DNA from: Eledone cirrhosa
Taxonomy: Eukaryota
Assembly (NCBI GenBank): GCA_964016885.1
Contig: OZ024740.1
Coordinates: 289,602,001-289,666,000 of the forward strand
DNA: 64,000 nucleotides
Direction of reading: 5' to 3'
The notes beneath the pieces are model-generated. The model did not search any database. It worked only from the letters and a program-made list of their open reading frames with translations, and was not told the DNA's origin. Below, in pieces: positions 3,359 through 52,169 of this stretch; the first letter of the stretch is position 1; every line of letters starts with the position of its first letter. A program made the translations under genes and the position numbers.

Positions 3359-5201
3359 TTCTGATTTTATAATTTCACAAATGTTTGCCAATAGAAAGAG
3401 AGAGTCGGTTTCTAACATAGACACAAGACTCTCTCATTGGAATTTACACAACACCAACTAGGTAGATATGTCTGCATGTCTGCATGCATGTGTGTGTAGG
3501 TATGAATGTTATTTATTGTATGTGTGGATGTGTATATTTTGGGTCGTATGTGTGCATGTGCATACGCTTTGTATCTGTACATGTGTATATGCAGTTATTA
3601 GATGCAAAACTTTTGGAATATTTTACATATTTTTATTGTTCTATTAATGGATATCCCAGTGCCCCAATAATCACAGGCATAAATCTGAAGGCAAAGTCAG
3701 GGTGGAGAATCTGCAGATTTCTAATTAGTTCTGCATACATATTCTCCTTCTCGCTAATCTTTGATATTATATTGGCATTTGCTGGGCAGCTAACTTCCAC
3801 TACTGTGCATGCCTTCTTTTTCCTGTCCCATATTATTATATTTGGTCTGTTATGTCTGCATTTTATTGGGGTTTTTACTGGAACATTCCACCAGTACTAT
3901 TTCATGTTATGTATATGTATGTCTTCCACATTGCTGCAGCTTTTAATGTGTTTATTATCGGGCTATCATCTACGGATAGCATTGTACAGTGTTTTGGCCA
4001 TTACATCCTCATAGGTAGATAGTACCGCGATGACATCTTTGGACAGCTTTTTATGACATGGGTGACATCTTCGATGTTAACTCTGCAGACTCTGCACTTG
4101 TTATCACATCTAGGTGTTTTGCTTGCATTCCTATCTCTTTTCTGAAACAGGTATTCTGTGTTGATTTCCTGTTCTTGGATTGCAAAAGCGTATCCTTCAA
4201 AGTGGGAGCCAATATAGCGGTTGTTGGTCCAAGATAGACTACTTTGTTTGTCTATATTACTGTCACTCTGAAGCTTCCTCGCAACATATCCATGCATGAT
4301 TTTTTTCTGATAAGCATGCAGTTTTTCTTCCATGGATTCACTGCGGTACTGCTGAGCGACTTACCTGGGTCTGAGTTTTTCATTATCACACAGGGATTAT
4401 CTTTCAAGGAGTTCCTTCTCAACTCTTATGATCTTATCTGTTTCATGCAGATAGACTTGCTCGAGAGACGGGCTCCCACGGTTCGAGGTTCGTAGATGTT
4501 GTCGGAGGGATATGATGCGACATTCAAATGCTGTCTGGACTGATGTTAGGGCTCTGCCTCCCTGCTTACGTTTCAAGTAAAGGCGGTCTATGTCTGTTAA
4601 TGTGGAAGTTTCCGGTGTTGTCTAGTATTTTTTGAGTCCTAATATCAATTGCTCGGATTTCGTCTATCGTCCAATTGAGTATTCCAAACGTTGGTGTTAG
4701 GACAGGCACAGCAAACACATTGTGAGCCACTGTTTTATTGTGCGCAGAAAGTTCCGATGACCAGATCTTTCTTAATCGGGTGTAATATTCCCTGGTTACG
4801 CGTTCCTTATTACAGATACGATTATAGGATATGTTCTCATCTATCCCCCGATATCTGTAGCAGTCCTCATCAGATATCGGTGAAACAGTTAGGCCATTGA
4901 TGACAATGTTGGTAGGTAAATTGGGTGCCTCTTTTTCCCGCTTTACAGTCATATATGAACATTTATCTTGGCCAAACTCCATTCCTATATCCTTTGAGAA
5001 TGTTGTAACCAGGTCAAAAGTTTTCTTCATCCCATCTATGTTCTTGGCAGAGAGTTTCAGATCATCCACGAAGGAATTATGGGTTAGGTTCGTATTTCTG
5101 TCCTCCCGTGAGCCAATAATGTATGCTTCACATTTCTTGAGCAGAAAGGATAAGGGGGCTTATTGATAGGATAAATAAAATCACAGAGAGACTGTCTCCT
5201 T
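3359..5201 (-). mobile_element. R4/Dong-type RLE non-LTR retrotransposon, 5'-truncated copy (family 1)
   Basis: QGDSLS, FVDDLKL, CCHC knuckle CRVCRVNIEDVTHVIKSC, RLE region and 3' UTR; frameshifted; (TATG)n on both sides. Confidence 0.9.
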
Positions 5202-5298
5202 GTATGTATGTATGTATGTATGTATGTATGTATGTATGTATGTATGTATGTATGTATGTATGCGTGTATGTATGCATGTATGTATGTATGTATGTATG

Positions 5299-5609
5299 TT
5301 CTTCTGGTTTCATAATTTCACAAATTTTTGCTACTAGAGAGTCGGTGTCTAACATAGTTACAAGACTTTCTCATTGGAATTTACACAACATCAACTAGGT
5401 AGATATGTATGCATGTCTGCATGTATTTCTGCAGGTATGGATGTTATTGTATGTGTGGATGTGTATGCTTTGAGTTACATGTTTCCATGTGCATATGCTT
5501 AGTATCTGTACATGTGTAATGCAGTTATTAAACCCAGAATTTTTGGAATGTTTTACATATTTTTACTGTTCTACTATTGGATTGTACTTGTAATTTCCTA
5601 ACTAGTCGT
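5299..5609 (-). mobile_element. R4/Dong family 1, short 3' fragment
   Basis: LVRKLQVQS..VKICKTFQKF plus the same 3' UTR; between (TATG)n tracts. Confidence 0.85.
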
Positions 5610-5618
5610 GTATGTATG

Positions 5619-6864
5619 TTATCTCTTTCTCTTAATTTCGAGTATATTTTTTTTGACCGGCCACCTTCCTGGTGGCAAGGTTGTAAAAGAAAAGAAATTG
5701 CCATCCCTTGAATCGCAAGAATGTTTTGCAAATTTTGAAGGTGCCAGCTATCGCAGCCATTTGTAGACTATGAATTAGGGAGCTGCGCTCTTTGTCCGCA
5801 AATCCAAGTTTATTCATACTTTGGTCCAAACGGATTGGTATATAACCCGTAGCTCCAAAAATGATGGGTATGAAGCTAAAGGTGTATCTTGGATACTGGA
5901 TTTGTAAACTCCTCATGAATGGTCCGTAGATGTCCTCCTTCTCCTGTATTTTTCTGACAACGTTTACATCAAGTGGGCAGCTGATCTCCACAACAGAACA
6001 CGTTTTCAATGTGTGGTCCCAAACAACAATATCAGCCCGGTTGTGGTTTAATTTGATGGCAGTTTTTATTTTCAGGTTCCACCAGTATTCCTTACTGCCA
6101 TCTGTCTCAATATATTCTTCCTCGTTTGTTGTTAATTTTGTTTTCCGAAGTGCGTTCCAGATGGTTCTAGCTATCCCATCGTGTCTCATGGGGAGGTAGC
6201 AGCGAGATGACATTCTTTCGCAGCTGGCAACAATGTGGCTTACATCCTCGATCTTTGTTTTACATAGCCTACATTTATTGTCAGCTGCTGGCCCTCGCCT
6301 TTTGTGCAGCAGATATTTGGTAGGGAGTTCTTGTTCCTGTATTGCATAGAGATATCCCTCAAGGTGTGATGTCATAAACTTGTCGGAACTCCATGCCAGG
6401 CTTTTTGAGTGGTTTATCCCCTCTATGGTCTGTGTTTTACGTCTCAAGTATCCATGCACAACTTTTTCTGTAAATTGGTCAATTTTTTCATCTTGTTTGA
6501 ACATTGAATAGGATCTTCCGATTTCTCTGGGTGAGAGATTTATATCAGGCTTTATTCCATATCTCTCCAACAGATCAGTCGCTATTCTAATGATATTTTT
6601 TTTTCATGCTCATAAACCTGAGCAAGATAGTTGCCAACCTTTTTCCTCTGTTGAAGATGTTGCTTCAGTGTTACTATCCGGGTCTCATATGTTGTTAATA
6701 TGGATTTTAGACCCCGGCCACCTTCCTTGCGTGAGAAGTATAGCCTATCCACATCACCATTGATGTTAAAGTTCCCAGTAACACTGAGAAGTTTGCGAGT
6801 TCTAACATCCATCTCACTTAGTTCTTGCAATGACCAGTTCAGCAGGCCAAATGTTGACGTTAGA

Positions 6865-6865
<1 letters not shown>
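5619..6865 (-). mobile_element. R4/Dong-type RLE element, divergent family 2, 5'-truncated
   Basis: ORFs 6582-6830 (LYFSRKEGGRGL) and 5632-6570 (CRLCKTKIEDVSHIVASC, RHD, RADIVVWD..VVEISCP..KEDIY); different 3' UTR; GTATGTATG at its 3' junction. Confidence 0.88.
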
Positions 6866-6895
<30 letters not shown>

Positions 6896-6949
6896 TGTAT
6901 GTATGTATGTATGTATGTATGTATGTATGTATGTATGTATGTATGTATG

Positions 6950-9900
6950 TTCTTCTGGTTTTATAATTTCACAAAGTTTTACCAATAGAGAGAGAGTCGG
7001 TTTCTAACATAGACACAAGACTCTCTCATTGGAATTTACACAGCATCAACTAGGTAGATATGTATGTATGCATGCATATGTAGATATGGATGTTATTGTA
7101 TGTGTGGATGTGGATGTTTTGAGTTGTATGTGTGCATGTGTATATGCTTTGTATCTGTACTTGTGTATATACAGTTATTAGATGCAAAATTTTTGGAATG
7201 TTTTACATATTTTTACTGTTCCATTAATGGATTGTACTTGCAGTTTCCTAACTAGTTGTGTTCTTTCTGTTCCTGCGAAGCCTAGCTTCTCAAAATTTGT
7301 ATTGAGGCAGTTACTAACATATCCCAGTGCCCCAATAATCACAGGCATAAATCTGAAAGTGTAATCAGGGTGGAGTATCTGCAGATTTCTCTTCAGTTCT
7401 GCATAAATATTCTCCTTTTCACTAATCTTTGATATTATATTGGCATCTGCTGGGCAGCTAATTTCCACTACTGTGCATGTTTTCTTCTCCCTGTCCCATA
7501 TCATAATAACTGGTCTGTTATGCCTGCATTTTATTGGGGTTTTTACTGGAACATTTCACCAGTACTCTTTCATATTATGTACATGGATGTCTTCCACATT
7601 GTTGTAGCTGTTAATGTGTTTATTATCGGGGCTATCTTTTTTACGAACTGCATTGTACAGTGTTTTGGCCACTACATCATGCCTCATAGGTAGATAGTAC
7701 CGCGATGACATCTTTGGACAGCTGCTGATGACATGGGTGATATCCTCGATGTTAGTTCTACCGTGACTGCACTTGTTATCACATCTAGGTGTTTTGCCTG
7801 CATCCCTATCTCTTTTGTGAATCAGGTATTTCGTGCTAATCTCCTGTTCTTGGATTGCAAAAGCATATCCTTCAAAGTGGGAGCCAATATAGCGGTTGTT
7901 GGTCCAAGATAGACTACTTTCCTTATCTATATTAATCTCACTCTGGAGCTTCCTGGCAACATATCCATGATCTTATCTGTTTCATGCAGATAGACTTGCT
8001 CGAGAAGCGGGCTCCCACGCTTCGAGGTTCGTAGATGTTGTCGGAAAGATATGATGCGACATTCAAATGTTGTCTGGACTGATGTTAGGCCTCTGTCTCC
8101 CTGCTTACGTTTCAAGTAAAGGCGTTCTATGTCACTGTTGATGTGGAAGTTTCCGGTGTTGTTCAGTATTTTTCGAGTTCCAACATCAACTGCTCGGATT
8201 TCGTCTATCGTCCAATTGAGTATTCCAAACGTTGGTGTTAGGACAGGCACAGCAAACACATTGTGAGCCACTGTTTTGTTTTTCACAGAGAGTTCCGATG
8301 ACCAGATCTTTCTTAATCGGGTGTAGTATTCCCTGGTTACGCGTTCTTTATTACAGATACCATTATAGGATATGTTCTCATCTATCCCCAGGTATCTGTA
8401 GCAGTCCTCATCTGATATCGGTGAAACAGTTAGGCCATTGATGACAATGTTGCTAGATTGGGTTGTTGTTTTTCCCCGCTTTACAGTCATGTATGAGCAT
8501 TTATCTTGGCCAAACTCCATTCCTATATCCTTTGAGAACGTTGTAACCAGGTCAAGATTTTTCTTCATCCCATTCATGTTCTTGGCATAGAGTTTCAGAT
8601 CGTCCACAAAGAAGTTATGGGTTAGGTTCGTATTTCTGTCCTCCTGTGAGCCAATGATGTATCCCTCACATTTCTTGAGCAGAAAGGACAAGGGGTTTAA
8701 TGACAAGATGAACAATATCACAGAGAGACTGTCCCCCTGAAATATACCCCTGCAATATTTTTATTTTATCACTGAAAATAGAGTCCTCCCTCTCTGTCTT
8801 TAACCTTAGGATAGTAGCCCAAGAAGAAGACAGCTTCTCTATGGCTCTGACAATAATGTCTGGGACTTTAGCAAGTTTGAGGACCTCTATCATCCAAGAG
8901 TGGGGAACAGAATTGAAAGCTTTCTTGTAGTCCAGCCAGACTGTAGTCATATTCCTCCTAAGTTGTCGCACCTCCGACATCGCAGTTTTGTTGATTAGGA
9001 GTTGTTGAGCACATCCCCAAAACCTTTTCTATCCAGCTGCTTGTTCATCTGTGATGATGTTATTATTTTCACAGTGATCTTGGAGGAATAGGTTCAGGCA
9101 GGCTGTATACATCTTATACATCAGGTTCTGGCATGCAATGGGTCGGTAGTTTTTTGCCAAGTGGGTGTCTTTGTTCTTGGGGACCAGTAACGTTTGTGTT
9201 AATGTCAACCATTCTGGTATAAGTGTATCTCCCTTAAGAACTTGTTGGTAGAGGTCAGTAAGATACCTCCGATAGAATATTAGTTTTTTGTACCAGTAGC
9301 CGACAATCATGTCTCTTCCTGGTGTTTTCTTATCTTGGAGTTTTCCTATCACAGTCTCAAGGGTACCCTCACTTATTTCGTATGTTTTTGTTGTAGTGCA
9401 ATAGTTCTTTCGGATTTCTCTTAGCCACACTGTATCTTGGTTGAAATTCTTCTTTTCACCCCATATTTTGCTCCAAAAGGAATCTGTCTTTCTGGGATGG
9501 GGCCTCAGTGACACTTATTATTTTGCCCTTCATATCTCTATATACTGATGTTTGGTTTCGTCTGAATCTTTTATTAAGCATTTTTCTCTCATCTACCTTC
9601 TTCAAGTATCGGCGTTTTTCGCTAACAGCTCTCAATTCTTGTTTGAGGGTGATCAGCTTATATTGGAGAGTTCTGGTTCTACTGTTACCAAACATCGTCT
9701 CTATTTTATTTTTCACTCTTTGTTGGTGAGGAGTGAGGTTTTTTGTGTTTGTTTGCATGTAAGGAGCATTGTCACATGTCCTATGTTTTTTCGTAAGTCA
9801 GCACTCTTTTTTTCTATTTTAGTTATATATGATGGTATTTTTGGTGGTGTTTTGTTCTTGTTAATATCTCTGCTATCACCAAGATAAGGCTTCACTGTCA

Positions 9901-10926
9901 TTGCTAAGGCATATAAACAGGCGTTGATTTGCCAAAATCTTGGGGTTTTTATCCGTCGTAAATATTCATCCCCTATTTCGTCAATAACACGTAGTATTTC
10001 ATTATTTGGTTTTTATTCACCATTGTCAATTTTAACACTTTCAGCCAGAGAGATATTTATACATGAGTTAATTTCTCTCTGAAGATTTCGTTGAGGAAAA
10101 TTTTCAATTGTTTATAATTTTGATTATCATTATCGATAGTATTTTTCACAACAGTCGAGGTAGACTCGGATGGTATACGTGGTGTCACATTTATTCGATT
10201 TTTATTATTATTTCTTCGATTATTATTATTATCGATAGTGTTTTCCCCAGCACTCGAGACTTAGATGGTACAGGTGGTGTCAAGTTTCTTACAAGCATAG
10301 TTGTTTCAAGGCGCTGTTCGACCTGGCTGCTAGGAAGTCTAGTAGCATGGCGATCTGTAGCACGTGTTGTTGATAACATGTTTATTGTGGGGGACTTACA
10401 ATTAATAATATTTATCTTATTTTTACGTTCAACAAACGTCGCTTGTTGGCGTAATTGTTTCGCTGTGAAATAATTTAGCTCTGGGTACATTTCGTCCCAG
10501 TGTAGCTTCATTCTATTCATATAGCCAATGGAGGGATTGTTTTTTGCCATTTTATAACAATTAAATAAATCATTATTAAGTTCGCAACTCCAAGAGAAAT
10601 GCGATTTATAATTTCGGTTTCTTCTGTAGCTACAACTGAATAAAGTTTGATTACCTTCTTTGTTATTTGTCTTCGATACTTCCTTAATTTTGTTGTTGAT
10701 GTTGTGTTCAGCCATGCTGTTTTTAGCAAATCCTTGTAAAATGAATTATGTATTTAGTCGGATATCTCTACGAATTCGAATAAAAGGTGTTTTCAGAAGG
10801 GATAGTTAAAAGAATAACCAGTTATTCAACCTGGCTGTAGTTGTGGCATTACTGTCGGAGATAGTATTCATCTTAAATTTAATAAATAGTCTCCCACGCC
10901 AAAATATGCGACTGATCGCGTTGACT
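6950..10926 (-). mobile_element. Near full-length R4/Dong-type RLE element (family 1), frameshifted
   Basis: N-terminal motif WSCELNNDLFNCY..GYMNRMKLHW (10191-10715); RT motifs PGRD, NYRPIAC, LDYKKAFNSVPHSW, QGDSLS, FVDDLKLY; C-terminal RLE ending at 7178; (TATG)n on both sides. Confidence 0.93.
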
Positions 10927-30748: not shown

Positions 30749-33700
30749 ATTTCATTGATTGGCCACAAGGGCCAACATATAGGGGACTACAAAAGACTAG
30801 GACAGTAGGGTTTTACAGAAAAATCGAGTAAACAATATGAATAACAATAACAAAGTAACAATAAAAATACAACAAGAAAAATTCCCCAATAGGGGGTATG
30901 ACCACCCATGGTTCGCTCAGGTACCCCACCAATCCTAAATGACCCGACGCTTCGAGAGCACCCTGGAAGGGCACCCCTCTCCTCCTCAAATTTACCCACC
31001 TACAGGCGCATGACCAGAGTAGGCTCACTCACATGGGCCATTCTCGCCATATTCACACACCTTTCAGCAAATGTACTAGGGGGGTGGGGGGGGGGGGGGC
31101 AGCACTTCTCTCTCCACTCTCACCTTCCTTTCTAAGTGAAACTTGAAAAAGTTGATGAGGGATTGGCCGAAGAGAACATCGTCTGTCTTCAGTCCTTTCA
31201 ACCTCGTCCACCATACAACCTCTTTCGCTACTGCCACCAGACAGAGGAAAATTTCCTGGAAGGCGGCGGGTCAATCTTCACTATGGACTCGGCCGATAGC
31301 CGGATCCGTTCTACACGCGACAACAGCTGTTCGACATAACTCCACAAGTCAGTAACGCACGGACACTGGACAAGTGCGTACAGAACGGTTTCGTCGCTCT
31401 GCGCGCATCTCGGGCAGGTCCGTCTGACAGCACTTCCGTACCTGTAGAGTTTATCTCGAACCGGTAGTTCCCCCCGGTAGCACTGCCAAGCGAGGGATTT
31501 TTGGAAATTATCCATCGTCCTCGGCTCGAAAGTCCTCCGGAACAGACTGGTTAGTTCGACTTCGTTGACTCCCAGAGCCTCTCCGAGTGCGGCATTTGCG
31601 CACTTGCCCACCACTAATCCTCTATAGAATTCGAGAGTGGAAGTTCCACTGACCACCTTTCCCGCCTGGTAGAGGGCAGTGAGTGCCTGGCAACATTGCA
31701 GATGCTAGTCACCCAGTCTCGGTCTCTTCTTGACCCATGACTGCAGCTCAGTCAAAGAAAAGAGCTGCGGAAAGGCCCGTCTGACAAACGGCGACCACAC
31801 CTGTTCACCGTTTAGGCAGAATATCTGGAGATGCCGCAGCCTCAGCGCGTGTCTGCGCATCATTAGCCACGGCATGCCCAGCCCTCCACGAAGAGGGTGC
31901 TGGCAGACGATGGACCGTCTCACCAGCGGAACCTGACCCCTCCACAAGAATTTGAAGAGGAGCCGCTCCAAGATGGCAAGGCGCGAACGGGGGCAAGGGA
32001 CAACGGTCAGACGGTAGTAGATGACGGACGCGATGTACGCGTTCGCCACCTCCGCCCGACCTTTCAGTGATAGCTTACTCCCAGCCCATTTCTGGGTGAG
32101 ACTGGCTACCCTGCCCGTCACCTCATCCCAATTCTTATCCACCTGTAGGTCTGGCCCGAAACAAACCCCGAGCAACTTTACCGGTCCGTCCGCCCAGCGC
32201 CTAACAACGCTGTTGGACGGCATGGACTTGCCTCTCCAGGTGCCGAGTTGCAAGCCCACCGCCTTTTCCAGGTTAAATTTTGCTCCCGTCAACCTTTCAT
32301 AATCCTCCAATAAGTTGCCGACCACCTTGATTTCTGAGGTGTCTGACACCATCACGGTGATGTCGTCCGCATAAGCCGACACAGCCTTTCCGCGTCCCGG
32401 TTCGAGCGGGATGCCCTGCAACAGCTCCAGCTTCCGCAGTAAAGGCTCGAGAGTCAATAAGTACAGAAGGGAGGAAAGAGGGCACCCTTGACGGACCGAT
32501 CGGCAGACCTGAAACGGTTCCGAGAGGTGGCCATTAATTCTGACCACCGAGCAGGTGACCTGTGCATTGCAGCGATCCAGCTTCTGAAGACGGGGCCGAA
32601 GCCAGCCGCCTTGAGGACAGCCTCCAGGTACCGATGGTCGACCCTGTCGAATGCTTTCGATTGATCTAAATTGATCAGAGGCCCACGGAAGCCACGTTTA
32701 CACCCTACCCTCTCTATGATGTATTGCATTAGGTGGAGTTTGTCAACCTTTCTATTTTTCTCTAACGCTACTTCTTTGCTAAATTCTATCGACATTACTC
32801 TAATCTCTCTTTTGAGAGCCCCCCACCATCTATTGTTGACGACTCCCCCTGTCAACTTTTTCTTAACTAAATTGTTGGCCTGGTCCCTGTAAGCTTACGT
32901 GCCGGAAATGATATGTTTAGCTTCCAGTAACCTGGTCCTAACCTACGCGTCTTATCTAGGTCGACCATACAGATCACAAACTTGTGATCTGAATAGGCGA
33001 CCGTTTTAAAACGTGGACAGCTTACACTATTTCTGTCTATTTTCCTAATGAATATCCTGTCTATATACGATCTAGATGACCCTATGCAGTTAGTCCAGGT
33101 CCACACTGGCGCATTAAGGAAATCTAGTCGGTACCTGTCAGACAGTTGGAACTGGCTGATCAGGTTCTTGAGGCTTTTGCACCCCCCGCTCCTATCGGAT
33201 ACTCCCACACAGTCCCAACGTGCGTCTAAGATGCCGTTCCAGTCCCCCGCTAACAGTAAAGGGCGAGACGTACCCAGAAAGGTTTCCAGGCGTCTAAAGA
33301 AGTCCGGCCGTCCTGCCCCCGTAGGGGCGTAGACGGCCACCAGTCTAAAGGCACCACCTTCGTTATTGTTCACGTCCAGGACCACCAGCTTCCCGCCTGG
33401 ATCCCGGAAGATCGACCTTACCTCGAGATCCAGGCCTTTTCCTAAACAGCACTGCCACTCCATCTCCCATTCCAGGCCGACTAACAGATGCAAAGATCTG
33501 ATAGTCGTCGAAAATGGGCGTTAGTGAGCGCGTGTTGGAAATTCTGGTCTCACTGACGGCAACTACATCCATTTCTAGAGACCTGAGGTCGTTGAGCAGG
33601 TGACCCTGCTTCCAGGACGATCCCAGGCCTCGAACATTTAAACTTCTTACTCTTAATACGGCCATGTTGGCAGGCTAAAAGAGAGAGGAAAGGTTTACTT

Positions 33701-35014: not shown

Positions 35015-35812
35015 TTAACCGTTGAAATTACAGGTACAATCCCCGCGATGTGTTTTCGCATAGTTACATCTAATATTTTTAAACCAGTTAATTACCTGGG
35101 AGGTGTTTTCCCAGAGTGGTAAAATAACGTGTTTTCTTATTTGTGGGATGACTCTATCCAAAATTTTTTTGCTAATTATTCCAATATCTGATTTGGAGGG
35201 ACATATAAGTCTTATAGAAGGATTTGAGTTAAAGTTTGATTTATGATCCTTCAGGTTGAAGTGTGGTCTTTTCAATGCCAAAGGTTCAGTTCTATCTTCA
35301 ATGTTTAGTTTTTTTACTATGTTGTGTGTTTTGTTGTTGATGTTGGTGAGTGACGCATTATTAGATTTTTTATAATTTTTCCTGAGTTCTTTATATATGA
35401 ACTCATTATAATGTTCAATATCCATGTGATACAAGTTACCAGTTTTGTCCGAGTGGACATGGATTTTTTTAGACTTTTTTAGGTCCAATAGGGTAGAATC
35501 AAGGTCCTTTTGAAAGACGGATTTATACTTTTTAAATTTGAGGTGTTTAATTAAATTAAAAAGGTCTTTCTCAAAGTCTTCAAGTAAAGAGTTGTGTGGT
35601 GGATTCTTGTAAGTATTGAAATCATACATATATTTCCGATCTGCATGTTTAGATTTTTTATCGAAGTGGTAGGCCCTCCATCTAACCCTTCTGATAAAAT
35701 TATTAGTTTTTTGAATCATAAGGAGTAAGAAGTCATCCTTAGAAGGTATTGGTATGTTCTTTAAAGAGGTTCCCAAATATTGTTTTTCCATTGTGATATG
35801 GATGGTGGACAA
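35015..35812 (-). CDS. N-terminal part of the PLE family A ORF (homology ends at 35064)
   Basis: SLKNIPIP..RRVRWRA..HSDKTGNLY; overlaps the start of ORF 39802-41886 almost identically. Confidence 0.88.
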   Translation of the reverse strand: MSTIHITMEKQYLGTSLKNIPIPSKDDFLLLMIQKTNNFIRRVRWRAYHFDKKSKHADRKYMYDFNTYKNPPHNSLLEDFEKDLFNLIKHLKFKKYKSVFQKDLDSTLLDLKKSKKIHVHSDKTGNLYHMDIEHYNEFIYKELRKNYKKSNNASLTNINNKTHNIVKKLNIEDRTEPLALKRPHFNLKDHKSNFNSNPSIRLICPSKSDIGIISKKILDRVIPQIRKHVILPLWENTSQVINWFKNIRCNYAKTHRGDCTCNFNG

Positions 35813-36142
35813 TTGAAAGAGCTCAACTAAATGTATATGGGTTTACAAAATCATACATATATATGTATATACATAAATATAAAATTAATACACACATACA
35901 GTACAAAAATACGAATATTTCCGTGAAAAATAGGAGCAAAATTATGTAGATAAATCTACCAAGAGTTTACGGTAGTGTCCAATCCGTATGGAGAACTCAA
36001 TGTAGTCCGGATATCATGGAAAGAAGAGATGCAATGAAAAATCACTTTCGGTGAAAGATAAACGGAATACAGAGTCAAGATAAAATATTAAAAAAATAAT
36101 GAATAAAACAATGAAACAGTTCCTTATATTAAACAAAAAAAG

Positions 36143-36297
36143 TTCATTATTTAACGATCGTTTCTAGGATATATATGTGTTAGAATTGGCATGCATATTC
36201 AACAGATCTATGTACAAAATTATACAAAATTATACAAACTATCAAGATTAAATATACATACCAAACACACATATATGCCGTCTTCAGAAATAATGAA
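36143..36297 (-). ncRNA. Type I hammerhead with 116-nt stem II (PLE A pLTR)
   Basis: Reverse complement of 42641-42795; on the coding strand, upstream of the ORF. Confidence 0.85.
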
Positions 36298-39801: not shown

Positions 39802-41886
39802 TTAATTAGGTTTATAATATTTAAATGTTTTTTTTAGTTTATGATTACACGATATAATTAATTCCTGTCGTTTATTTAATAGGATATCCTTAGATTTCAT
39901 TATTTCAAATAGTTCTTGGGAACATAATCTACATTCATTTCTATTATTTTGATAAGGGGTGGCTCTTTTGAGCACACTCCAGGTCAAATCATATTCTATA
40001 TTCTTATTTTTATAACTATTGATTTTTTCTGCTAGAGAAGTTGTATTAGCCAGTGCGGCATTTTTAAAACTATGCTTGTGGGTATTAAACCTTGTCTTAA
40101 AATTGTTAGAAGTAGCTCCTATATATGAGCAAATAGAATCTTTAGTTTTAACATTACATTTATAGACTATGTTGTTAACAAGACAATTCCCTTTTAATGG
40201 GCAGTTTGCTTTGTTTCTACAGTTACAACCTTTCGTTAATTCTGTATTTGAGGAGATATTATGGTTAGTTTGATGTATTGGTGGTATACTTATGGTTTTC
40301 TTACATTTATATGCATTATAGGCACTTATATTTTGTTTTATGTTATTTGTTGTTGAGTATGAGAATTTAACTGTAGACCTATTTAAGATTTGATGGTATT
40401 TGTGGTTTGGCGGGAAGTTTTTCTCTAGGATATAAAAAAATTTTTTAGCAATATTATCCTTAATTTGTAAATTAAATGGAGCATTATACCAAGTAACCCG
40501 TCTATTACGGTTTCTATGTTGTTTATTATTTTTATTATTTTTATAGGTTGTATCGTGATGTTTACTAGGAGGATTAATGTTAATGATCTCACCACAACCA
40601 TTTTTAGTTATATTTGTAGATTTAGGTGTTTTATCTTTTTTATTAGGAGTTTTATTATTAATATTTATTAGAGTTGTATGATGAGTAGTTTTTTGAGAGT
40701 TACTATATTTTATATTAGAAGATTTGGTATTTTGGGGTATAGTGTGGGTGGCATTTAGGTGTGTACTTTTCATTTGGTGTTTGTTGGTAATATTAGGTTG
40801 TATGTTTTTAGTATTTTTAGTAGAAGGTATATATTCTAATCTATTTTTGTGGCCACTTCTATCTAGAGCTTCGTTATAGAAGGTCGCATTTTTATCAAAT
40901 ACATCTTGGTTAGAAGAAAGGTTAGAAATTCTAAGTGATATATTATATGCAAGGTTTTTAAGGATAGATTTAGAGTGATTAGATTGTGAATGTATGTAAT
41001 GTAAGTTTTGGTTTGGTTTATGGTAAGGTTGGTAGATACCCGTAGCTAAATCTAAAGTTATATCTAGGAAATTTACTACTTTACTTGTTTTTTCAAAAGT
41101 AATATGAAGATTATAATAGTCTTTAAGGAAAGTTCTAATATGTTTTTTGTTTTTTTCTATTTCTGAAAGGCTAAGGTTGTTAGAAAGAAGAAGACAGTCA
41201 TCACGATATAAACCACCTTTAAGGTGGGGAAAGGAGGCATTTATGTTGAAAAGGAGAAAGAGGCCCACAAGATCAGTAATTTGGGCGGAATCGCTTGAAC
41301 CCATAGTAATATCAAATAGATTACTATATGTGTTTCTGGTCCAGTATTCATTCTGAAATTCAATAAGTGTTAGTCTAGCATGTGTAATAATATTAATGTC
41401 ATCCAAAGTTAAGTTAGATCTATTTTTAGCAAATATCAATGCTTTGTTCAGGAGTATAGGTGATATAGAAGAATAGTAATTATCTATATCAAATTGTAGA
41501 AATGAAGCAGAAGATTTACATCTAATATTTTTAAACCAGTTAATTACCTGGGAGGTGTTTTCCCAGAGTGGTAAAATAACGTGTTTTCTTATTTGTGGGA
41601 TGACTCTATCCAAAATTTTTTTGCTAATTATTCCAATATCTGATTTGGAGGGACATATAAGTCTTATAGAAGGATTTGAGTTAAAGTTTGATTTATGATC
41701 CTCCAGGTTGAAGTGTGGTCTTTTCAATGCCAAAGGTTCAGTTCTATCTTCAATGTTTAGTTTTTTTACTATGTTGTGTGTTTTGTTGTTGATGTTGGTG
41801 AGTGACGCATTATTAGATTTTTTATAATTTTTCCTGAGTTCTTTATATATGAACTCATTATAATGTTCAATATCCATGTGATACAA
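39802..41886 (-). CDS. PLE reverse transcriptase plus GIY-YIG endonuclease (5'-truncated, uninterrupted 694 aa)
   Basis: QFDIDNYY, TMGSSDSA, LYRDD, VNFLD; CNCRNKANCPLKGNC linker; IVY..YIG..FKTRFNTH; CRLCSQE..LLNKRQE. Confidence 0.95.
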   Translation of the reverse strand: MYHMDIEHYNEFIYKELRKNYKKSNNASLTNINNKTHNIVKKLNIEDRTEPLALKRPHFNLEDHKSNFNSNPSIRLICPSKSDIGIISKKILDRVIPQIRKHVILPLWENTSQVINWFKNIRCKSSASFLQFDIDNYYSSISPILLNKALIFAKNRSNLTLDDINIITHARLTLIEFQNEYWTRNTYSNLFDITMGSSDSAQITDLVGLFLLFNINASFPHLKGGLYRDDCLLLSNNLSLSEIEKNKKHIRTFLKDYYNLHITFEKTSKVVNFLDITLDLATGIYQPYHKPNQNLHYIHSQSNHSKSILKNLAYNISLRISNLSSNQDVFDKNATFYNEALDRSGHKNRLEYIPSTKNTKNIQPNITNKHQMKSTHLNATHTIPQNTKSSNIKYSNSQKTTHHTTLININNKTPNKKDKTPKSTNITKNGCGEIININPPSKHHDTTYKNNKNNKQHRNRNRRVTWYNAPFNLQIKDNIAKKFFYILEKNFPPNHKYHQILNRSTVKFSYSTTNNIKQNISAYNAYKCKKTISIPPIHQTNHNISSNTELTKGCNCRNKANCPLKGNCLVNNIVYKCNVKTKDSICSYIGATSNNFKTRFNTHKHSFKNAALANTTSLAEKINSYKNKNIEYDLTWSVLKRATPYQNNRNECRLCSQELFEIMKSKDILLNKRQELIISCNHKLKKTFKYYKPN

Positions 41887-42640: not shown

Positions 42641-42795
42641 TTCATTATTTCTGAAGACGGCATATATGTGTGTTTGGTATGTATATTTAATCTTGATAGT
42701 TTGTATAATTTTGTATAATTTTGTACATAGATCTGTTGAATATGCATGCCAATTCTAACACATATATATCCTAGAAACGATCGTTAAATAATGAA
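42641..42795 (+). ncRNA. Type I hammerhead with 116-nt stem II (PLE A pLTR)
   Basis: TTCATTATTT-CTGAAGA-[116 nt hairpin]-GAAA-CGATCG-TT-AAATAATGAA; perfect 10-bp stem I. Confidence 0.87.
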
Positions 42796-45354: not shown

Positions 45355-45364
45355 TATATATATA

Positions 45365-45737
45365 CACAGAGGTATCCATGTAAGTTGTGGGGTCTATACT
45401 GTATGAAGAACTCAATGTAATCCATATGTTGAAAATGTTGTAGGTTAAGATAAATCTCAGAAAACAATAAAACATTAAAAGGAAAACAGAGTCATGATAT
45501 AGGTTAAAACAATGAAATAAAAAATCAAGTCATTAGAGATATACTTCACTGCTTTACGATCGTTTCTAGATGGTGATAATACATTGTATCTATACTCAGT
45601 TATTGATCTATGTAAGTTTACAAACTATCAGATAGAGAGAATATTTACTTACATGCATATCACCAGCTGTTTTCAAAAGCAATAATAATTTTATTCAATA
45701 ATAATTTTACTCAGAATTAGTATCATGTCCATATTTG
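45365..45737 (-). mobile_element. PLE family B pLTR, inverted copy
   Basis: Matches the reverse complement of 50586-50780; shares gaactcaatgta with the family A 5' region. Confidence 0.8.
45545..45685 (-). ncRNA. Type I hammerhead variant: U3-A8 core, 103-nt stem II (PLE B)
   Basis: TTATTGCTT-TTGAAAA-CAGCTGGTGATA...TATCACCATCTA-GAAA-CGATCG-TA-AAGCAGTGA. Confidence 0.78.
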
Positions 45738-45762
45738 TCTATTTTTTTCTTTTTATAATTAA

Positions 45763-46581
45763 CTAGCAGTAAAGCCCGGCGTTGCTCGGGGTCGCTCAGT
45801 AGCTGTGTTAAAGTTACAATGTTAAGTTTCTTTCTTGGCTTAAAAACTGCAGTGTCTACTGTGCAGACTTGCATGTGGTGTTTTTGATTAATATTCCCTC
45901 AACCAACAATATGCCTTATGAAGTTAAGAAAACATAACGATAACCCGAATGTTATAACAAAAGAGGATGCTGGGGATAAAAACTGCACTGGTTATTTATT
46001 AACAAAGATCGAAAATGTAAACACTGCAACGCAGAGGAAAACATTAGCGTAACCAAATTATCAGTTATGTCTGTCTGCACGCCTATATCACCTCTCTGCA
46101 CGACTGTCTGTCTGCACGCCTAACGAAATTTACAGATACATATATTTTAAATAAACTTATATAATTTTTGCTTTTTTTTACGAAATATTTGCTTGTTTTA
46201 AATAGTTTTTAAATAGACTTGTTTTCAAGTAAAAATATTGTTTTAAAAGGCTTGTTTTACGTAGTCTTTAAATCGTGTATTGTGTTAATGTCATTTTAAA
46301 CGCTGAGAAAACCAGCGTAATTTTTTTAATTTTTGCACGCAGACGCTCAATGTAAACAGAACAAAGGGAAATAACTAATCACTTACGCTCAAACATCGAT
46401 ACATTATATTCGATTTCGTCAGATAGGGCGGGTCAATTTGAAATATTTTTTTTCCGATGTCTTCGCTAGGGCTCAATGTACAAGTATAGCAATTTCGGTG
46501 CAATTCCGTGAGAGATTCTAAGAGGAGATGTGTGCCAAAAATCGATAGACAGACAGACAACCTCAGTTTTATATATATAGA
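45763..46581 (-). mobile_element. Non-autonomous Helitron, about 820 bp
   Basis: A|TC 5' end, hairpin cccgagcaacgccggg, CTAG|T 3' end, no TSD. Confidence 0.9.
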
Positions 46582-46795
46582 TTATAAAAAGAAAAAAATA
46601 GATTTTAAGTTATCGTGGAACACCATTCTACAAAAAACTCCATATCTTGGAAACAGGAAGGAATGCAGATTATGTTCAGGCGAGATCTTGGAAATTATTA
46701 AATCTAAGGACGATTTATTAAATAAAAGACGAGAATTGATCATAGTCTGTAATCACCGTATACGAAAAACATTTAAATACTATAAACCTAATTAA
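46582..46795 (+). pseudogene. PLE family B ORF 3' end (C-terminal GIY-YIG region)
   Basis: LSWNTILQKTPY..KECRLCSGEILEIIKSKDDLLNKRRELIIVCNHRIRKTFKYYKPN*, homologous to the family A C-terminus. Confidence 0.9.
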
Positions 46796-47104
46796 ATATT
46801 CTAAATAGCAACTCACTATAATTCCGTATAGAATAACATTTATTAGTACCTCTTTCCCCTAATTATATGCTTTCATGGTTATTTTTGACTTTTAATGTTT
46901 TAGCTTCCTTAGATTTATGCGTTAATGACTAAAGATAACAAGATACACAGCCACCCGTAATTGTATGAGTAAAAATAAACATCTATGTATGATATGGAAA
47001 TATATTTGTGTGTGTATATATTTGTGTGTGTATATATATATATGTATATATATATATATGTATATGTATATATATGTATATATATATGTATATATATATA
47101 TATG

Positions 47105-47144
<40 letters not shown>

Positions 47145-47189
47145 TGTGTATATATGTATGTATGTATGTATATATGTATGTATTATGTC

Positions 47190-49837: not shown

Positions 49838-50621
49838 CATATATAAATGAAAGGTATAGAAAGGTATAGAAAACACTGCAGCGAAAAGCCACCAGCACTC
49901 CATAATATATATACATATATGTATGTCGATGTGTATATGTATATATGGGGTATAGATGTGTATGTGTGGATATAGATGTGTATGGATATGTATATATATG
50001 ATTATATGCATGCGTGTGGATGTATATTTTGGTTTGATATCAATATAACTGTACCTCTCTCTATATGTGGTGTGAATATATGCACTTTGTAGACTATGAA
50101 ATTTATGTGTTTTAACTATGCCAACATGTAGTTATCTGAGTTTGATTGTTTATGCATAAACATATTTAGTAATATTTTAGAGCGTATAATATGTTATATT
50201 ATACTGAGTGCAATTTACCACACCGTCCTATATTGTGTTGGTTAAGTTGTATATTATCGCATTACTATATCTCATTATCTTATTATAATTTTCATCTTTT
50301 AATATACTATCTTTCCTAGCCATAGATTTAATTTATATTCACCTTAAAACTCAATACAACACTAATCACCATTTATTTTGACATTCCTTTTAAATTCACT
50401 ATACAAGATACATTCAACTATCAGTTTGACAATCCTCTCCCTTCCTAATAGATTTTTATGCCATTTCTACTAACACCTCTCAACCATTTCTTTCAAAGGG
50501 TCATGACCTCAACTAAAGTATATTACTTTTCATCTTAACACCATATGAAAAAAACAATTTGATTCGTTAGTTCATCAACTACCTCCAAATATGGACATGA
50601 TACTAATTCTGAGTAAAATTA

Positions 50622-50732
50622 TTATTGCTTTTGAAAACAGCTGGTGATATGCATGTAAGTAAATATTCTCTCTATCTGATAGTTTGTAAACTTACATAGA
50701 TCAATAACTAGAAACCATCGTAAAGCAGTGAA
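50622..50732 (+). ncRNA. PLE B hammerhead variant (U3-A8), damaged copy
   Basis: TTGAAAA core; 30-nt deletion in the 3' arm of stem II; palindrome changed to CCATCG. Confidence 0.65.
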
Positions 50733-50787
50733 GTATATCTCTAATGACTTGATTTCTTATTTCATTGTTTTAACTTATATACATATA

Positions 50788-50877
<90 letters not shown>

Positions 50878-51082
50878 AGTTAAAACAATGAAATAAAAAA
50901 TCAAGTCATTAGAGATATACTTCACTGCTTTACGATCGTTTCTAGTTATTGATCTATGTAAGTTTACAAACTATCAGATATATATTTATCCTTATCGAGC
51001 CCTCTTTGGATTTTAGTCTTCAAATTTATTATTATTACTATTTGGCTCCCTCGGTCGAGCACTCTATTGACTTATATTCTTC

Positions 51083-51850: not shown

Positions 51851-52169
51851 AGTATAAAAGAGAAAACACAGGTAAGCATTAAGAGAAGGATTTTATCCAG
51901 GTATTTACGACCGTTTCATTGGTAAGTGCAACCTTACATTGCTATACTGCAAATAGCAGCCACTCAATTATAATTGTTGTTCAGAATTATTAAGAATTAT
52001 TTCAAGAGTAACTCACTATTTTGAAAATTTGAACTGTGAACAACAATTATAATTGAGTGGCTGCTATTTGCAGTATAGCAATATAAGGTTGCACTTACCA
52101 ATGAAACGGTCGTAAATACCTGGATAAAATCCTTCTCTTAATGCTTACCTGTGTTTTCTCTTTTATACT
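51851..52169. repeat. 133-bp inverted repeat carrying the 3' half of a hammerhead
   Basis: Arms 51851-51983 and 52037-52169, one mismatch seen; GAAA-CGGTCG-TA at 52103-52114. Confidence 0.88.

Follow-up and report, generated by a model that had tools for sequence, protein, structure and literature searches.

A hammerhead-type motif in a 64,000-nt stretch of Eledone cirrhosa DNA (the window) carries U3-A8 (UUGAAAA) where a related family carries C3-G8 (CUGAAGA). Our favoured reading, which we hold to be reasonably likely, is that the motif belongs to a pseudo-LTR of a Hydra-clade Penelope-like element, here family B, that U3-A8 is present nearly throughout this family, and that the motif is a weak, dimer-type type I hammerhead whose predicted cut, after GUA, requires two copies to be joined via the palindrome CGAUCG. 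Sequence comparisons show that the swap at positions 3 and 8 is real and family-wide and already has precedents; it is probably selected.

Family B copy 1 (45685-45546, minus strand) comprises, in order, a stem I 5' strand, UUGAAAA, a stem II region, GAAA, CGAUCG, UA and a stem I 3' strand (Table 1). A first-pass annotation made from the sequence alone had reported UUGAAAA in both B copies, and both cores were recovered where it had placed them. Copy 2 is not an intact hammerhead: a 30-nt deletion includes the stem II 3' arm, and CCAUCG in place of CGAUCG breaks the palindrome. Copy 2 terminates in (TA)n ~58 nt beyond its predicted cut site. Comparison with a near-full family B element (L039) delimits an inverted family B pseudo-LTR at 45362-45728. 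Copies 1 and 2 differ by a few sites and two indels and, on the alignment to L039, probably represent opposite ends of a single insertion, since an inverted pseudo-LTR 5' of the body is the usual inverted 5' layout. If so, they are not two observations, and family-wide counts take their place.

Table 1. Coordinates of hammerhead parts and associated element features in the window.
Feature	Position	Strand	Detail
Family B copy 1, stem I 5' strand	45677..45685	minus	UUAUUGCUU
Family B copy 1, core U3-U4-G5-A6-A7-A8-A9	45670..45676	minus	U3 = 45676, A8 = 45671
Family B copy 1, stem II region	45567..45669	minus	103 nt; C.A mismatch (45669/45567), then A-U, G-C, C.U, long helix
Family B copy 1, GAAA + palindromic CGAUCG + U16.1 + A17	45555..45566	minus	A17 = 45555
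Family B copy 1, predicted cut	between 45555 and 45554	minus	
Family B copy 1, stem I 3' strand	45546..45554	minus	AAGCAGUGA
Family B copy 1, tail	45362..45545	minus	~190 nt beyond predicted cut, into (TA)n
Family B body remnant	46581..47171	plus	GIY-YIG endonuclease C-terminal part (stop 46795) and start of 3' untranslated region
Family B 3' untranslated region and pseudo-LTR copy 2	about 49905..50793	plus	core 50631-50637
Family B third copy, inverted	50860..50980	minus	partial (3' half only); 30-nt deletion in common with copy 2
Family A hammerhead, comparator	42641..42795	plus	C3-G8, U17; CUGAAGA at 42651
Family A hammerhead, second copy	core start 36287, position 17 at 36153	minus	CUGAAGA
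Family A open frame	39802..41886	minus	RT and C-terminal GIY-YIG, CxCX5C linker
Family A protein, N-terminal piece	35015-35842	minus	DKT motif
Family C hammerhead	52017..52118	plus	U3-A8 (UUGAAAA), core 52021-52027; GAAACGGUCGUA 52103-52114
Family C 3' half, inverted	51917-51906	minus	

To determine the conservation of positions 3 and 8, pattern counts were made over the whole 3.0-Gb genome. A 28-nt family B pattern, with exact flanks and both positions free, gave 471 matches against 0 for the reversed control, which argues against chance. U3-A8 is present in 462 of these exact-flank copies (462 by subtraction), and the others comprise 3 C3-A8, 2 U3-G8, 3 U3-U8 and 1 U3-C8; C3-G8 was found in 0 of the 471. 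A wider pattern anchored on both halves, which admitted U, C and G at position 3 and excluded A3 copies, recovered 888 whole B-type motifs, and the six with C3 are all C3-A8. The first 30 of the 888 are all U3-A8 with A, C or U at N7, and all 30 possess U4 G5 A6 N7, A9, G12 A13 A14, A15.1-U16.1 and H17, positions that the search pattern itself demanded. U3 and A8 are thus fixed together in family B with N7 free, and the CUGAAGA consensus that the annotation had considered as a counter-possibility is not what the family shows. As in type I hammerheads, stems I and II are present with open ends at stem I, and the 3-8 pair is complementary as U-A in the 462 copies, covariation pointing to the pairing itself. 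A paired 10.1-11.1 is lacking, with a C.A mismatch in both A and B that the annotation had passed over; G-C is usual there (PMC4209133), but pairing is a usual and not an absolute hammerhead feature and mismatches are precedented. A register of family A with G10.1-C11.1 and extra bases was ruled out, as families B and I do not permit it.

Family A has the same layout of hammerhead parts but the core CUGAAGA, present in both window copies as annotated. The A and B motifs had been described as homologous, and GAAACGAUCGUH and the apical GAUAGUUUGUA...CAUAGAUC are common to both; the stem I strings of the two families were found exactly as given, and the proposed covariation of stem I is borne out by 3 of 9 pairs that differ on both strands between A-type and B-type copies. 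Stem I pairing holds in 98.6% of 140 cells, compared to 25.7-58.6% when slid, in 10 hand-picked related rows, so that these percentages are not a probability. Positions 3 and 8 are not, as had been claimed, the sole core changes: position 17 also differs, being U in A and A in B, and a subfamily, A', combines A17 with C3-G8. A pattern of A-type flanks with A8 gave 41 matches, the first 30 of which comprise 28 C3-A8 single mutants, one B copy and one A' copy in which U3-A8 accompanies a disrupted stem I, and no hidden U3-A8 subfamily of A was found among these 30.

By its sequence features, family B is a Penelope-like retroelement of the Hydra clade, and the annotation had likewise called it Penelope-like. 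B copies L039 and L159 contain SDKT and CNCRNRSIC (DKT replacing DKG, and a CxCX5C linker) and align along the family A frame of RT and C-terminal GIY-YIG, in pieces owing to frameshifts; the C-terminal endonuclease is of the YIG type, and the ends lie in (TA)n. DKT, CxCX5C, a C-terminal GIY-YIG and (TA)n targets are features of the Hydra clade (10.1101/2021.04.23.441226). Insertion into (TA)n occurs with pseudo-LTRs in tandem or inverted, and L039 shows the tandem layout, with the ORF lying between a pair of motifs that share a strand and are 4,335 nt apart. Pfam returned nothing for the family A frame, the domain names of which rest on motifs and the published description of the clade, and a reading by eye, as a tentative check for a CCHH motif, showed no CxxC in the GIY-YIG core. 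Naiad identity was rejected, given that the endonuclease of Naiads is N-terminal. For the family A frame, 8,000 scored candidates yielded 519 homologs, and the 120 listed include one from Argonauta hians at 44%. Family B copies (L036, L160, L168, L038) often contain nested retroelements, including other Hydra-type families; that in L168 is a family D element with a short canonical C3-G8 hammerhead. In the window, an insert at ~45760-46580 (minus) between copy 1 and the B ORF remnant has a terminal GC-rich hairpin and then CTAGT, presumably resembling the ends of Helitron-derived elements, and disrupted reading frames of non-LTR retrotransposons, which match RVT_1, zf-RVT and Exo_endo_phos, lie at 4566-10745 and 31228-33520 (minus).

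Folding predictions suggest how such a motif may act. Helix III consists of two base pairs around the palindrome, the self-duplex of ACGAUCGU is predicted at -10.0 kcal/mol, as for a dimer-type helix III, and the core-open dimer is predicted at -73.0 kcal/mol, compared to -64.6 kcal/mol for twice the monomer. The core-open fold lies 1.4 kcal/mol above the minimum in the predicted dimer, and in B monomers it is predicted to cost 3.2-4.8 kcal/mol; the family B fold has a z of -2.2. The prediction for the B monomer pairs U3 with A17 and so extends stem I (P 0.85, and 0.89 in B2); the corresponding pairing of positions 3 and 17 has a predicted P of 0.16 in family C, whose stem I is weak, and of 0.00 in C3 families. 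The hammerhead was not obtained as the predicted minimum-energy fold for families C, J and O. The predicted U3-A17 pair of family B mirrors a C3-G17 trap, itself a proposal, that reduces cleavage in tertiary-stabilised hammerheads without eliminating it (PMC3884650), and motifs of this kind have been proposed to pair as dimers, as which their cleavage is low but real (PMC4209133). In a single copy of family B, U3 would pair with A17 and the site would be closed; helix III is predicted to form between two copies through CGAUCG, and a transcript spanning two tandem pseudo-LTRs may form a double hammerhead. Cutting would probably trim read-through RNA and would not be the step that fixes insertion ends, which lie ~55 and ~190 nt downstream.

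Any Watson-Crick 3-8 pair is reportedly tolerated in two ribozymes, according to Przybilski and Hammann in 2007. Covarying 3-8 ribozymes are stated to be active in vitro on the authority of another paper (PMC3088659), and when pairwise mutants of one type III hammerhead were scanned, no swap other than C3G/G8C restored activity in the 3-8 region (PMC9901934). The failure of U3-A8 in that scan is one of several observations consistent with a second explanation, namely that the fold is kept as a structure (a protein binding site, or a dimerisation or packaging signal) and that family B has little or no cleavage activity, with U3 paired with A17. The predicted U3-A17 pairing and the presence of A17 in two of the three U3-A8 families are also consistent with this, as is the dispensability of cleavage for insertion in vitro in an anole element (PMC11167929), and no copy examined ends or begins at the cut site. 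However, the 3-8 pair exists solely in the active conformation (PMC3884650) and has been kept twice by compensation, which favours the catalytic fold. In addition, G12 is retained, the NUH rule still holds, and the core-open fold lies close to the minimum in the predicted dimer. A purely structural role is thus considered unlikely, though it retains appreciable weight. Retained catalysis in family B remains an inference, as conservation shows a kept fold and not a rate, and the favoured reading remains that of a weak hammerhead under selection for its 3-8 pair.

U3-A8 is not confined to family B. Family C, for which 1,602 3' halves were counted genome-wide, and family F also carry it, with A at position 17 in B and C and U in F; F is thus U3-A8/U17 and C is U3-A8/A17, and families J and O are C3-G8/U17. 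Of 1,861 motifs of the C/F/J/O type, the first 100 were read by eye: 77 are U3-A8, 20 are C3-G8, 3 are mismatched and none is U3-G8. In the window, family C (51906-52118) is a Hydra-type pseudo-LTR in a tail-to-tail inverted layout; loop III of its hammerhead is GGUC, and 10.1/11.1 is U.U. The 10.1/11.1 position is mismatched in A, B, C and F, as it is in 34 of 35 further motifs, and G17 was found in 0 of 35 related motifs. At least ten more long-armed hammerhead families are present in the genome, mostly C3-G8. Family K (L169, L180, L183, L193, L197) is an abundant C3-G8 motif with A.A at 10.1/11.1 that may be non-autonomous, as a linked ORF was not found in the stretches fetched.

A protein tree was built from this genome's families and homologs, with short and near-identical rows dropped. 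Families K, G, L, M, N and others are absent from it for want of a linked ORF, motifs were linked to ORFs by position, and the 3-8 label was known before the tree was built. Family B is sister to A and A', whereas C and F lie inside a group that is otherwise C3-G8 (I, H, J, E, O), and family D (C3-G8) falls outside both groups holding U3-A8 families. Two 3-8 changes are required in both trees (LG+G4, 20/39 rows; mixture model, 13 rows) and are forced by starred branches, and a single U3-A8 clade was rejected (p-AU 3.6e-51). Given the position of D outside these groups, and C3-G8 in every one of the 26 published Hydra rows, two gains of U3-A8 are the simplest reading, and on these sequences the compensation appears to have been repeated. 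As the same swap sits on a second branch of the protein tree, selection on the 3-8 pair, which the annotation had proposed, is better supported than before. Repeated compensation in a pair limited to the active fold constitutes sequence evidence of selection for a working hammerhead, which is of interest in Penelope-like elements given that cleavage proved dispensable for insertion in vitro (PMC11167929).

The same distribution bears on neutral decay, in which two AT-biased transitions would have been fixed by chance in masters of elements that no longer needed the ribozyme. The sequence is AT-rich and the two transitions, C-to-T and G-to-A, each lead towards AT; Naiad elements have spread without hammerheads, and single mismatched copies do occur (~1%). 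The mismatched state, however, is family-wide in none of the families sampled; N7 and stem II have diverged among B, C and F, but the remaining core positions have not changed; and the identical two positions changed on two branches. Two changes falling at exactly 3 and 8 of 11 core positions represent a rough 1 in 55 per branch, a figure to be read with patterns that are blind to families changed elsewhere in the core. Neutral decay is disfavoured as improbable, and selection on the 3-8 pair is preferred. The core is retained across families that are 40-74% identical in protein, although the motif patterns fix the other core positions and families altered elsewhere in the core would be missed. 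A further, speculative and improbable reading is that the repeated U3-A8 with A17 is an evolved safety catch, in which U3-A17 would shut single copies and pseudo-LTR pairing would free U3 to pair with A8, so that cleavage is tuned down and uncut RNA is left for reverse transcription.

The ends of insertions were surveyed in loci chosen by hammerhead patterns, which biases the survey with respect to ends at the cut site. Of 38 family B ends, 17 lie between +50 and +69 past the predicted cut and 14 between +190 and +199, and one more copy reached the 200-nt limit of the survey. None of 30 3' halves anchored only to position 17 stops at the cut site, as all 30 run beyond it, and none of 120 downstream segments starts there. 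The two end clusters are ~130 nt apart (loci L071-L100, L137-L154), at ~+55 and ~+190 in B and ~+55 and ~+189 in C; family A ends at ~+71, with a second site beyond the 200 nt examined, and these tails exceed the 30-40 bp tails described for other clades. In an anole Penelope-like element, uncut RNA is the template and reverse transcription takes place at two internal sites; catalytic hammerhead mutants of this element did not reduce insertion in vitro (PMC11167929). By analogy, ends at two sites past the cut fit this mode of reverse transcription.

Standard CUGANGA searches had been predicted to miss family B. It would indeed be missed, but the failure is not specific to the swap: the Rfam hammerhead models gave no match to E 10 for family B, nor for family A with its canonical core, and because a C3-G8 family is missed too, the swap alone is not the cause of failed searches. 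Across the whole window, Rfam returned no hammerhead among the 150 of 167 matches listed, all of them microsatellite-driven miRNA, and the output of a repeat finder was swamped by microsatellites. Genome-wide, YTAGAAACGATCGTH has 15,990 matches (control 100), and whole motifs with an AAUU loop III have 5,156 (control 22). These ~16,000 and ~5,000 related motifs are long-armed, a type that escaped Rfam in both tests made on the window.

The novelty implied by the annotation does not stand, as U3-A8 is already published for natural hammerheads (PMC3088659) and for Penelope-like elements (PMC4209133). The swap itself adds little; its value lies in natural matched pairs within one genome, namely A' (C3-G8/A17) against B (U3-A8/A17), and J and O (C3-G8/U17) against F (U3-A8/U17) and C (U3-A8/A17). 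A literature search yielded no account of U3-A8 in the Hydra clade or of two origins in one genome, nor the U3/A17 combination, although Lunse et al. 2016/2017, Nelson and Uhlenbeck 2008 and Przybilski and Hammann 2007 may cover U3-A8 rates, A17 effects and such variants; the accessible portions of PMC6765202, PMC6155905 and 10.64898/2026.07.22.740005 added nothing on the 3-8 swap.

Several known systems resemble family B in part. Perreault et al. 2011 (PMC3088659) describe C3-G8 to U3-A8 covariation in several natural hammerheads and, as in the present families, a 10.1/11.1 mismatch (U10.1.U11.1), but in the parts of that paper available their U3-A8 examples are not tied to retroelement families or repeated origins. 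Hydra-clade elements (Craig et al. 2021, PMC8557442) share with B the DKT, CxCX5C, C-terminal GIY-YIG and (TA)n targets, and the published rows (File S2) have a stem II base mismatch in 15 of 26 by our own count; unlike B, all 26 are C3-G8, with short stem II loops and U3-A8 in none. Cervera and De la Pena 2014 (PMC4209133) reported U3-A8 in Schistosoma mansoni Penelope-like elements, with about 1,300 hits. These Cercyon minimal hammerheads (Fig. S2, row S. mansoni 4) are, like B, type I motifs in a pseudo-LTR with UUGAAAA and a weak palindromic helix III, and a relative, here S. japonicum, carries a C3-G8 counterpart. The S. mansoni 4 row differs in its short stem II opened by G-C and its U at position 17. 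In family B, C.A opens a stem II region of 103-107 nt, loop III is a 4-nt palindrome and position 17 is A; the two sets of elements belong to different clades.
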